Shown here: positions 5,863 through 7,006 of the stretch, in pieces
Position numbering within the stretch: the first letter of the stretch is position 1
How the letters are laid out: each line of letters starts with the position of its first letter
Origin: a virus
Taxonomy: Duplodnaviria > Heunggongvirae > Uroviricota > Caudoviricetes
Reading direction: 5' to 3' (one strand)
IMG/VR virus record: IMGVR_UViG_2675903352_000004
Span: 1 to 12,195 of that record
Length of the DNA: 12,195 bases
Made by a program: the position numbers and the translations under genes
Notes under the pieces: model-generated
What the model was told of the DNA's origin: nothing
The model's database searches: none
Seen by the model: the letters and a program-made list of their open reading frames with translations, nothing else

Positions 5863-6429
5863 ATGGCTAAACCAGCGCGAAGACGATGTAACCGTAAAAG
5901 AGAAGATTTAACTGTTAAAAGGATATTTGAGTTACTAAGTTTCGATAAATCTACCGGGGTATTTAGATGGAAAGTTCCCACTCAGGGAAGGATAGCATTA
6001 AATAGTGTTGCTGGAACTTTTGATTCCAACGGTTATTCAATGATCATGATAGATGGGCGTAGATATAAAACTCACGTCTTAGTTTTTTACATAACTCATA
6101 ATCGTTGGCCTGCTGGTCAAATTGACCACGTTAATGGAATTAGGACCGACAATAGGCCAGAAAATTTAAGAGAATGCCTGCCAATAGAAAATTCAAGAAA
6201 TATAAGGATCCGAAAGAATAGCAAATCAGGTTGCAGAGGGGTTACTTGGCACAAACGACAGAAAAAATGGAATGTTAGGCTAGGATTCCATGGCAAGAGT
6301 AAACACTTCGGATGCTTTGATGATCTGGAGTTAGCGGTACTAGTTGCTGAAGAAGCCCGAGATAAGTATTACGGTGATTTTTCCGGCAACGAAAGGAGCA
6401 CTTATGCGAATCTATCGAAGGAAATGTAA
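5863..6429 (+). CDS. HNH endonuclease with a C-terminal AP2-like DNA-binding region (homing-endonuclease-like), 188 aa. Its first 9 codons (MAKPARRRC) are the lambda-type ninG start.
   Basis: GGAGGAAGAAGG Shine-Dalgarno 8 nt upstream of ATG 5863. The translation carries HNH_3-like elements (…[38 protein letters not shown]…) and an AP2-like C-terminal part (…[50 protein letters not shown]…). The ORF extends in frame upstream to 5782, but 5863 has the Shine-Dalgarno sequence. Confidence 0.75.
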
Positions 6430-7006
6430 ATGTTGCAATGAATGGTTTATACCAAAATATCAAAATCAATATTGGTGTAATGAGATTTGTGGAACCAAGA
6501 TAGCACTCGAACGACGAAGTAAAGAACGCGAAAAAGCGGAAAAAGCAGCAGAGAAGAAACTACGACGAGAGGAGCAGAAACAGAAAGATAAACTGAAGAT
6601 TCGAAAACTCGCCTTAAAGCCCCGCAGTTACTGGATTAAACAAGCCCAACAAGCCGTAAACGCCTTCATCAGAGAAAGAGACCGCGACTTACCATGTATC
6701 TCGTGCGGAACGCTCACGTCTGCTCAGTGGGATGCCGGACATTACCGGACAACTGCTGCGGCACCTCAACTCCGATTTGATGAACGCAATATTCACAAGC
6801 AATGCGTGGTGTGCAACCAGCACAAAAGCGGAAATCTCGTTCCGTATCGCGTCGAACTGATTAGCCGCATCGGGCAGGAAGCAGTAGAGGAAATCGAATC
6901 AAACCATAACCGCTATCGCTGGACTGTCGAAGAGTGCAGGGCCATCAAGGCGGAGTATCAACAGAAACTTAAAAAACTGCGAAACAGCAGAAGTGAGGTT
7001 GCATGA
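6404..7006 (+). CDS. ninG: NinG (Rap) recombination-associated protein, 200 aa, with a divergent AT-rich N-terminal ~30 codons
   Basis: From …[24 protein letters not shown]… to the end the translation matches lambda NinG. AAAGGAG Shine-Dalgarno 6 nt before ATG 6404; it overlaps the end of the HNH gene; ATGA overlap with ninI. Confidence 0.85.

Follow-up and report, generated by a model that had tools for sequence, protein, structure and literature searches.

The DNA analysed here (the window) is a stretch of 12,195 nucleotides (nt), positions 1 to 12,195 of IMG/VR virus record IMGVR_UViG_2675903352_000004, and corresponds to the replication-nin-Q segment of a lambdoid Escherichia coli prophage. 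Genes for P, Ren, NinB and a methylase are followed by ninG, a NinI-type phosphatase gene and Q, and the closest full-length matches to the window are chromosomal prophages of pig and enterohaemorrhagic E. coli (EHEC)-type strains. Our subject is the 5' end of ninG. Here an open reading frame (ORF) for an HNH_3 plus AP2-like endonuclease (5863-6429, plus strand, 188 amino acids) consists of codons 1-9 of ninG fused to a nuclease, and it is followed, with an overlap of 26 nt, by a chimeric full-length ninG (6404-7006, plus strand, 200 amino acids).

When compared by blastn with lambda (J02459), the window gave two collinear matches around this arrangement. The first is a short lambda-type remnant (5850-5891, plus strand, 40/42 identical, E = 1.5e-13) that holds the 3' end of ninF, the ninG ribosome-binding site GGAGGAAGAAGG (read directly at 5849-5860, plus strand), ATG 5863, codons 1-9 of ninG (MAKPARRRC) and the AA of codon 10; this piece now serves as the translation-initiation region and the N-terminal tail of the HNH ORF. 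The second match (6488-7006, 96.9% identical) is the remainder of ninG. Between the two lies an AT-rich cassette of 596 nt (5892-6487, plus strand) that has no lambda match and takes the place of 64 nt of lambda ninG, namely codons 10-31 when numbered from MAKP. The initial annotation, made from the sequence alone, had recognised the first residues of the HNH protein as those of lambda NinG and had placed the ORF on the ninG ribosome-binding site. Both points hold: lambda NinG begins (M)MAKPARRRC, the GenBank coding sequence starting one ATG earlier at a codon that is GCG in the window, and the ribosome-binding site falls in the stretch that matches lambda at 40 of 42 positions. The junctions had been put at about 5889 and 6487; the right one (6487/6488, before the TGT-GGA-ACC of Cys-Gly-Thr) was correct, and the left one lies instead at 5891/5892, after TGT-AA, so that the estimate was good to within 2 nt overall. 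What had been termed an insertion is, strictly speaking, an exchange of 64 nt for 596 nt. GC (guanine plus cytosine) content is 37.6% in the insert, 28.6% in its last part (6404-6487) and 48.9% in the rest of ninG. Neither a promoter-like site nor a terminator was found within the cassette, and its ends carry no inverted or direct repeats that we could find except for homologous ATGTAA codons (see below). A transposon or insertion sequence (IS) was considered and rejected: neither terminal repeats nor a transposase are present, and the HNH ORF is the sole ORF in the insert.

Profile searches agree with the initial annotation that the ORF diverges after codon 9 into an AT-rich HNH endonuclease with a putative AP2 part: Pfam HNH_3 (PF13392) matches residues 68-107 at 42.7 bits (cut-off 24.8), and the AP2 profile reaches 22.2 bits, under its cut-off of 33.3. 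The ORF also matches phrog_99, 'HNH endonuclease' (1.4e-71); NCBIfam gave no match for either the HNH protein or NinG. The closest homologues of the HNH protein (40-44% identity) come from Jersey-like, T5-like and T7-like phages, where their genes stand free and carry a homing-endonuclease annotation. In an alignment of 13 sequences including the query, residues D88, H89, N101, L102, R103 and N110 are invariant, and the conserved residues of the beta-beta-alpha-metal motif (the His general base and Asn/Asn) are retained. Homology to these relatives begins at about residue 12-16, before which they have only Met and a few residues; the structured core spans approximately residues 12-175, and the last ~11 residues read through the Shine-Dalgarno sequence and start of the downstream, chimeric ninG (ninG'). 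An AlphaFold model made from the homologue alignment has a predicted local distance difference test (pLDDT) score of 86.7, with high values for the strands and helix of the motif region (residues 86-113) and low values at residues 1-10, which are ninG-derived, and at residues 178-188, the read-through of the next gene's start. The top Foldseek match of this model in the PDB is I-HmuI (1u3e; probability 1.00, 99 columns, root-mean-square deviation 3.9 Å, E = 8e-3, template modelling (TM) score 0.35), and this likeness of predicted fold gives moderate support to HNH_3 membership. The next matches are AP2 domains: AtERF1 (1gcc, 1.3 Å over 51 columns), 7wq5 and 7et4. Residues 127-173 of the model show the AP2 topology of three strands and a helix. 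At the sequence level, a PDB search returned a weak AP2 match alone (phmmer, WRI1, E = 0.19), and four homologues of the HNH protein have precomputed PF00847 hits.

From 5892 as far as codon 62, direct reading finds neither ATG nor GTG nor TTG in frame, so the conserved nuclease core should be translatable only from the captured ninG start. Upstream in-frame GTGs offer alternative starts for the HNH ORF solely where, as in the window, the cassette is preceded by an AT-rich island (3094-5849, described below). At loci with an intact ninF (L003 and L004), ninF overlaps the equivalent of ATG 5863 exactly as ninF overlaps ninG in lambda.

The initial annotation was also right that ninG restarts at ATG 6404 with its own Shine-Dalgarno sequence: AGGAG (6394-6398, plus strand) lies 5 nt before the ATG, within the HNH coding tail, and predicted RNA structure at this start is nothing unusual (z = -0.17). 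The substitute 5' end that follows (6404-6487, plus strand) comprises 28 AT-rich codons homologous to lambda NinG residues 1-31. It had been called recoded, a description that we do not retain: with 53 matching nt (of 93 in lambda and 84 here) and about half of the residues identical, it represents a divergent ninG homologue and not a synonymous recoding. Its cysteines are spaced C-x2-C-x13-C-x3-C versus C-x4-C-x13-C-x3-C in lambda (C8/C11...C25/C29 versus C9/C14...C28/C32), the x13 and x3 spacings being unchanged. From C29 (lambda C32; TGT 6488, C29-G-T-K) the protein is lambda-type. The proposal that the substitute 5' end leaves NinG intact is upheld by the Pfam NinG profile (PF05766), which is matched end to end (279.5 bits, residues 4-194, profile positions 5-192 of 193), and the chimeric protein matches phrog_171 at 2e-117. 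In all cases the substitute ninG 5' end is accompanied by the HNH gene. Further downstream, a 9-nt in-frame indel, GAAAAGGCA, follows the equivalent of window position 6538 in phage AU6Stx1 and six further cassette-bearing copies, adding Glu-Lys-Ala to the Lys/Glu-rich linker of NinG; it is absent from the window and from lambda.

The ATGTAA at the left junction (5886-5891, plus strand) covers the lambda Cys9-Lys10 codons. In the substitute ninG, a second ATGTAA (6424-6429) covers the homologous codons, Cys8-Lys9, and holds the HNH stop codon (TAA, 6427-6429). An equally fitting description of the arrangement is thus an insertion of 538 nt (5892-6429) between diverged direct copies of the first ~nine ninG codons, and removing 5892-6429 on paper does leave ninG in frame by direct reading. 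This description, which may hint at how the element arose, includes in addition a 58-nt divergent tract (6430-6487) that is always co-inherited. Either way, the founding event as read from the junctions is a single one: an AT-rich foreign segment was joined to ninG after Cys9/AA and rejoined it at TGT-GGA-ACC. The segment consists of the nuclease core and, from a divergent homologue of ninG, the 28 codons at its start.

Searches for a donor, meaning a lineage where the nuclease gene and an AT-rich ninG naturally adjoin, were made with both parts of the cassette. With the 40-residue N-terminus of ninG', only E. coli fragments were recovered, and a tblastn search of phages found other NinG N-termini that are at best 55-61% identical to the substitute one. 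A scan of one genome per species yielded only a 39% planctomycete match. The two nearest metagenomic homologues of the nuclease have T7-like or unknown contexts with no ninG. As no donor lineage emerged, an ancestry in which the nuclease gene stood free upstream of a divergent ninG is conjecture. The nearest non-identical homologue (44%; L005 1033-1927, on a JGI metagenome contig) lies directly after a T7-type endonuclease I gene. On this T7-like contig, as at ninG, the HNH gene thus abuts a gene for a junction-resolving nuclease (Holliday-junction resolvase), which may be coincidence.

At an identity of at least 99% and with the same junctions, the cassette is present in 538 of 5426 complete E. 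coli genomes. Insertion-free alleles of ninG, to which the initial annotation had looked for comparison, turned out to be plentiful: they occur in lambda, 434, 21, the HK phages and others, and 1050 of the same 5426 genomes have uninterrupted lambda-type ninG 5' ends. Among 422 phage records matching this ninG region the site is filled in four, and two Stx1 phages, AU6Stx1 and SH2026Stx1, carry the cassette. A Salmonella Infantis prophage also carries the cassette with these junctions, as do 56 IMG/VR contigs, in which it is again at least 99% identical, and RefSeq labels the two genes at such loci 'HNH endonuclease' and 'recombination protein NinG'. Two upstream contexts are seen, one with an intact ninF (~21 IMG/VR loci, E. 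coli PK8241 and the Salmonella locus) and one, which includes the window, with the AT-rich island 3094-5849 in place of most of ninF. The downstream contexts differ as well, with ninH present or absent and several Q types. In PK8241 (L003 4508-5817) an IS3-family element with an apparent 3-nt target duplication lies inside the AGGAG (equivalent to window 6396-6398), parting ninG' from its Shine-Dalgarno sequence and changing the HNH C-terminus. In E. coli O157:H7 strain 119 (NZ_CP028662.1; L147 and L148) the filled site, with HNH and NinG, lies in a degraded prophage and adjoins an IS30 remnant, and an empty lambda-type ninG lies in another degraded prophage.

To characterize variation within the cassette, 54 complete copies were compared. 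Nucleotide diversity (pi) was 0.004 in the insert, with 25 segregating sites in 596 nt, and 0.033 in the adjoining 519 nt of ninG, with 101 sites and 34 haplotypes. At synonymous sites, diversity (piS) was 0.014 in HNH versus 0.089 in adjoining ninG, or 6.5-fold lower, and this contrast indicates that the low diversity of the insert reflects youth and not constraint. The Salmonella copy differs at 4/596 insert positions and at 25/519 ninG positions. For several of the insert-bearing ninG 3' haplotypes, the identical or closest allele is an insert-free one and not another insert-bearing one. All four gametes with presence or absence of the cassette are found at single-nucleotide polymorphisms 9, 33 and 57 nt beyond the right junction; on the left side, at position 5860 and 32 nt away, insert-bearing copies have G (33) or A (21), and G is found in 1 of 72 insert-free alleles. 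These patterns indicate that the cassette arose once, recently, and then moved repeatedly into different lambda-type ninG alleles, the points of exchange lying at its very edges. Finally, the HNH ORF is unbroken in 53 of the 54 copies and its ratio of nonsynonymous to synonymous diversity (piN/piS) is 0.14, indicating that selection maintains the nuclease. The broken copy (L063) has a 1-nt deletion, equivalent to window 6083, that frameshifts HNH. Singleton changes at invariant HNH positions (P83T, N101S) were also seen, and in two copies (L038 and L042) a stop at Glu36 (ninG' codon 36) truncates ninG.

We consider that these observations are probably explained by a free-standing HNH homing-endonuclease gene, of the I-HmuI-like HNH_3 plus AP2 class, having colonised the 5' end of a lambda-type ninG. 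A selfish, homing-type element fits both the population data and the protein family, and homing itself is plausible. Being translated from the ninG ribosome-binding site and ATG, the nuclease would inherit the ninF-ninG overlap and delayed-early transcription from PR through the nin region; ninG would be re-initiated from the Shine-Dalgarno sequence and ATG in the 3' tail of the nuclease gene, so that both proteins can be made and the host gene is kept. Upon induction or mixed infection, the nuclease may nick or cut an uninterrupted lambda-type ninG within or beside the replaced 64 nt. The divergent spare 5' end would render the carrier allele immune, and break repair copying the carrier allele would convert empty sites. 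Conversion of this kind would explain how one young cassette comes to be found in many ninG alleles and prophage backbones.

Several points weigh against this explanation. The AP2 score lies under its cut-off and all Foldseek E-values exceed 0.001, the best being 8e-3. The protein search for relatives of the HNH protein returned none between 44% and 99% identity. The samples are redundant, containing many EHEC clones, and the insert-free comparison set consists of the 80 most lambda-like alleles. In lambdoid phages, sharp mosaic boundaries and shuffled flanks are normal even without a nuclease, so the population pattern, while it is what homing predicts, is no proof of nuclease-driven spread; ordinary recombination, in a region as highly mosaic as this, is compatible with it too. 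Finally, strain 119 has filled and empty sites in one chromosome, and the 64 nt at its empty site differ from lambda at one position only. This coexistence shows that the nuclease has not converted this empty site and that conversion is not pervasive. As evidence against homing it is weak, since lysogens keep their nin genes repressed and cells that are induced lyse.

The likeliest rival is a passive history, which we think unlikely. According to it, the cassette entered once by illegitimate recombination and then travelled by homologous recombination and EHEC clonal expansion as a mosaic module, the nuclease being inactive or not targeting ninG. The nin regions of lambdoid phages are indeed highly shuffled (PMC4118853), and the same loci contain other sharp-edged modules that are present or absent (ninH, the 3094-5849 island and the 9-nt indel). 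The occurrence of empty and filled sites together in one chromosome and the occasional decay of the cassette (the L063 frameshift and the P83T and N101S singletons) are likewise what a passive module would show. On the other hand, the piN/piS of 0.14 points to selection keeping the nuclease, the four-gamete sites 9-57 nt from the right junction of so young an insert imply many exchanges at its edge, and the characterised members of this nuclease family are homing enzymes.

The homing-endonuclease explanation that we prefer can also be put in a bolder form, which builds on the 538-nt description and which, taken as one joint claim, we regard as possible but doubtful. The cassette would then home actively, following a 'start-swap' strategy, and 5892-6429 (538 nt) would be its minimal unit: a start-less HNH core, then a Shine-Dalgarno sequence and the spare first ~nine ninG codons. 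Such a unit would enter precisely after the TGT-AA of the Cys-Lys codons, the resident start would drive the nuclease and the spare start would re-create ninG, so that a coding 5' end could be invaded at no cost. Once induced, the element would drive gene conversion immediately before Q and stx, among the many lambdoid and Stx prophages that reside together in EHEC.

It is improbable, in our judgement, that the nuclease has been domesticated, either to exclude or degrade competing lambdoid phages (marker exclusion) or to assist recombination together with NinG/Rap. Purifying selection on the ORF, co-expression with the recombination genes of the nin region as suggested by its position, and its high frequency in EHEC genomes with many co-resident lambdoid prophages would all be expected of a domesticated gene. 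Nothing, however, sets these features apart from selfish maintenance; most lambdoid phages do without the gene (it is carried by 4 of the 422 phage records with ninG matches), and unlike HNH proteins of cos cleavage it does not lie beside terminase. An intron- or intein-borne endonuclease, with the insert spliced from ninG RNA or protein, is hardly credible. In its favour, the protein that matches best in structure, I-HmuI, is the product of a group I intron gene, and deletion of 5892-6429 would keep ninG in frame, but no Rfam family, group I and II introns included, matches 5300-7100 at E <= 1, the ORF occupies the entire insert so that a ribozyme core would not fit, Pfam matches are to HNH_3 and AP2 only with no intein (Hint) domain, and ninG has a separate Shine-Dalgarno sequence and ATG.

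The free-standing homing endonucleases of T-even phages, SegF, SegG and MobE, are reportedly capable of 'intronless homing' and marker exclusion (Belle et al. 2002; Liu et al. 2003; Wilson & Edgell 2009). The ninG cassette resembles them in that the gene lies outside an intron or intein and beside or in a conserved phage gene, shows presence/absence polymorphism and is borne by an allele that may differ at the presumed target, with spread expected through double-strand-break repair and co-conversion of flanks. It differs in its position: the T-even genes are usually intergenic and have their own expression signals, whereas the ninG nuclease sits start-less in a coding 5' end, brings a replacement for that end and is hosted by temperate lambdoid prophages. 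In Aeromonas phage Aeh1, insertion of mobE is said to split nrdA into 'genes in pieces' (Friedrich et al. 2007). There too a coding sequence harbours a free-standing HNH gene and the invaded gene would keep its function, but the Aeh1 host protein is made of two polypeptides that reassemble, and NinG remains one polypeptide by virtue of its substitute 5' end. A substitute gene end is also known from prophages e14 and 21, which reportedly integrate in icd and carry a substitute icd 3' end (Hill et al. 1989; Campbell et al. 1992). In both cases the interrupted gene receives from the element a diverged version of its lost end, differing at many positions, and should thereby stay functional. The e14 and 21 events are, however, integrase-mediated recombination of a whole prophage at a 3' end, as opposed to a 0.6-kb nuclease cassette at a 5' end.

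The sole close precedent that we found for a borrowed start is gene 31 of Salmonella phage epsilon34, in which the N-terminus of eaE is fused to an HNH homing endonuclease (PMC2629481). That enzyme belongs to another endonuclease lineage, related to Lactobacillus phage enzymes, and has another target gene, and no replacement 5' end restoring the latter is reported. As to the enzyme itself, MobA-E are listed among the His-Me enzymes, and the pairing of HNH_3 with AP2 is an accepted architecture among homing endonucleases (PMC5714182, citing Magnani et al. 2004 and Wessler 2005). In these HNH-AP2 enzymes the nuclease is followed by an AP2 domain of three strands plus a helix; the same order is predicted for the ninG HNH protein, whose putative AP2 domain scores 22.2 bits against a cut-off of 33.3. 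I-HmuI of Bacillus phage SPO1 (1u3e), the best structural match to the N-terminal half, shares the HNH_3 family and the modular build of nuclease plus C-terminal DNA-binding module (HNH_3/zf-His_Me_endon group 2, PMC5714182). It is intron-encoded, has NUMOD and helix-turn-helix (HTH) modules where the present protein has a putative AP2 module, and is related at 17% sequence identity and a Foldseek E of 8e-3. In the literature searched, we found no paper that joins ninG, HNH and Stx or prophage, or lambdoid phages and free-standing homing endonucleases. The combination of start capture, spare 5' end and lambdoid prophage host thus appears undescribed in that literature: a selfish phage gene of a familiar kind in a new layout.

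Work on homing endonuclease genes is extensive for lytic phages (T4, T5, SPO1), while hardly any is known for temperate lambdoid phages. The present cassette is found in roughly a tenth of complete E. coli genomes, for the most part EHEC, as well as in Stx1 phages, and lies ~1.2 kb upstream of the gene for the Q antiterminator, which controls stx expression. If active, it would subject the nin-Q region of prophages residing together to built-in double-strand breaks and to gene conversion, and would contribute to the mosaicism of Stx phages. Its layout suggests how a selfish gene can enter the 5' end of a coding sequence, leave that gene active and do without expression signals of its own, the start being borrowed and the 5' end supplied. 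Pipelines that annotate an 'HNH endonuclease' and a 'NinG' overlook this start-capture layout.

The remaining features of the window flank the two genes. Upstream, the AT-rich island (3094-5849, 34% GC) takes the place of ~100 nt of ninF (lambda L001 1400-1500) and is separated from the HNH cassette by just 42 nt of lambda-like spacer. It encodes, on the minus strand, an ORF of 617 amino acids (3552-5405) that belongs to phrog_9230 (unknown function) and has no Pfam or NCBIfam match. The right end of the island adjoins an uninterrupted ninG in none of the 5426 complete E. coli genomes, and the cassette does occur without the island. That island and cassette form a single insertion was considered and rejected, the cassette being found also with intact ninF and no island. 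A short tandem repeat run of TATTTC/TTTCTA (5640-5668) lies in the non-coding stretch between the 617-residue ORF and the ninF/ninG remnant. Downstream, ninH is missing at 7006-7012; in lambda it takes up the ~190 nt that separate ninG from the NinI-type phosphatase gene. The ATG of the phosphatase gene (7003) overlaps the ninG stop in the window, and ninH is retained in other cassette-bearing loci.

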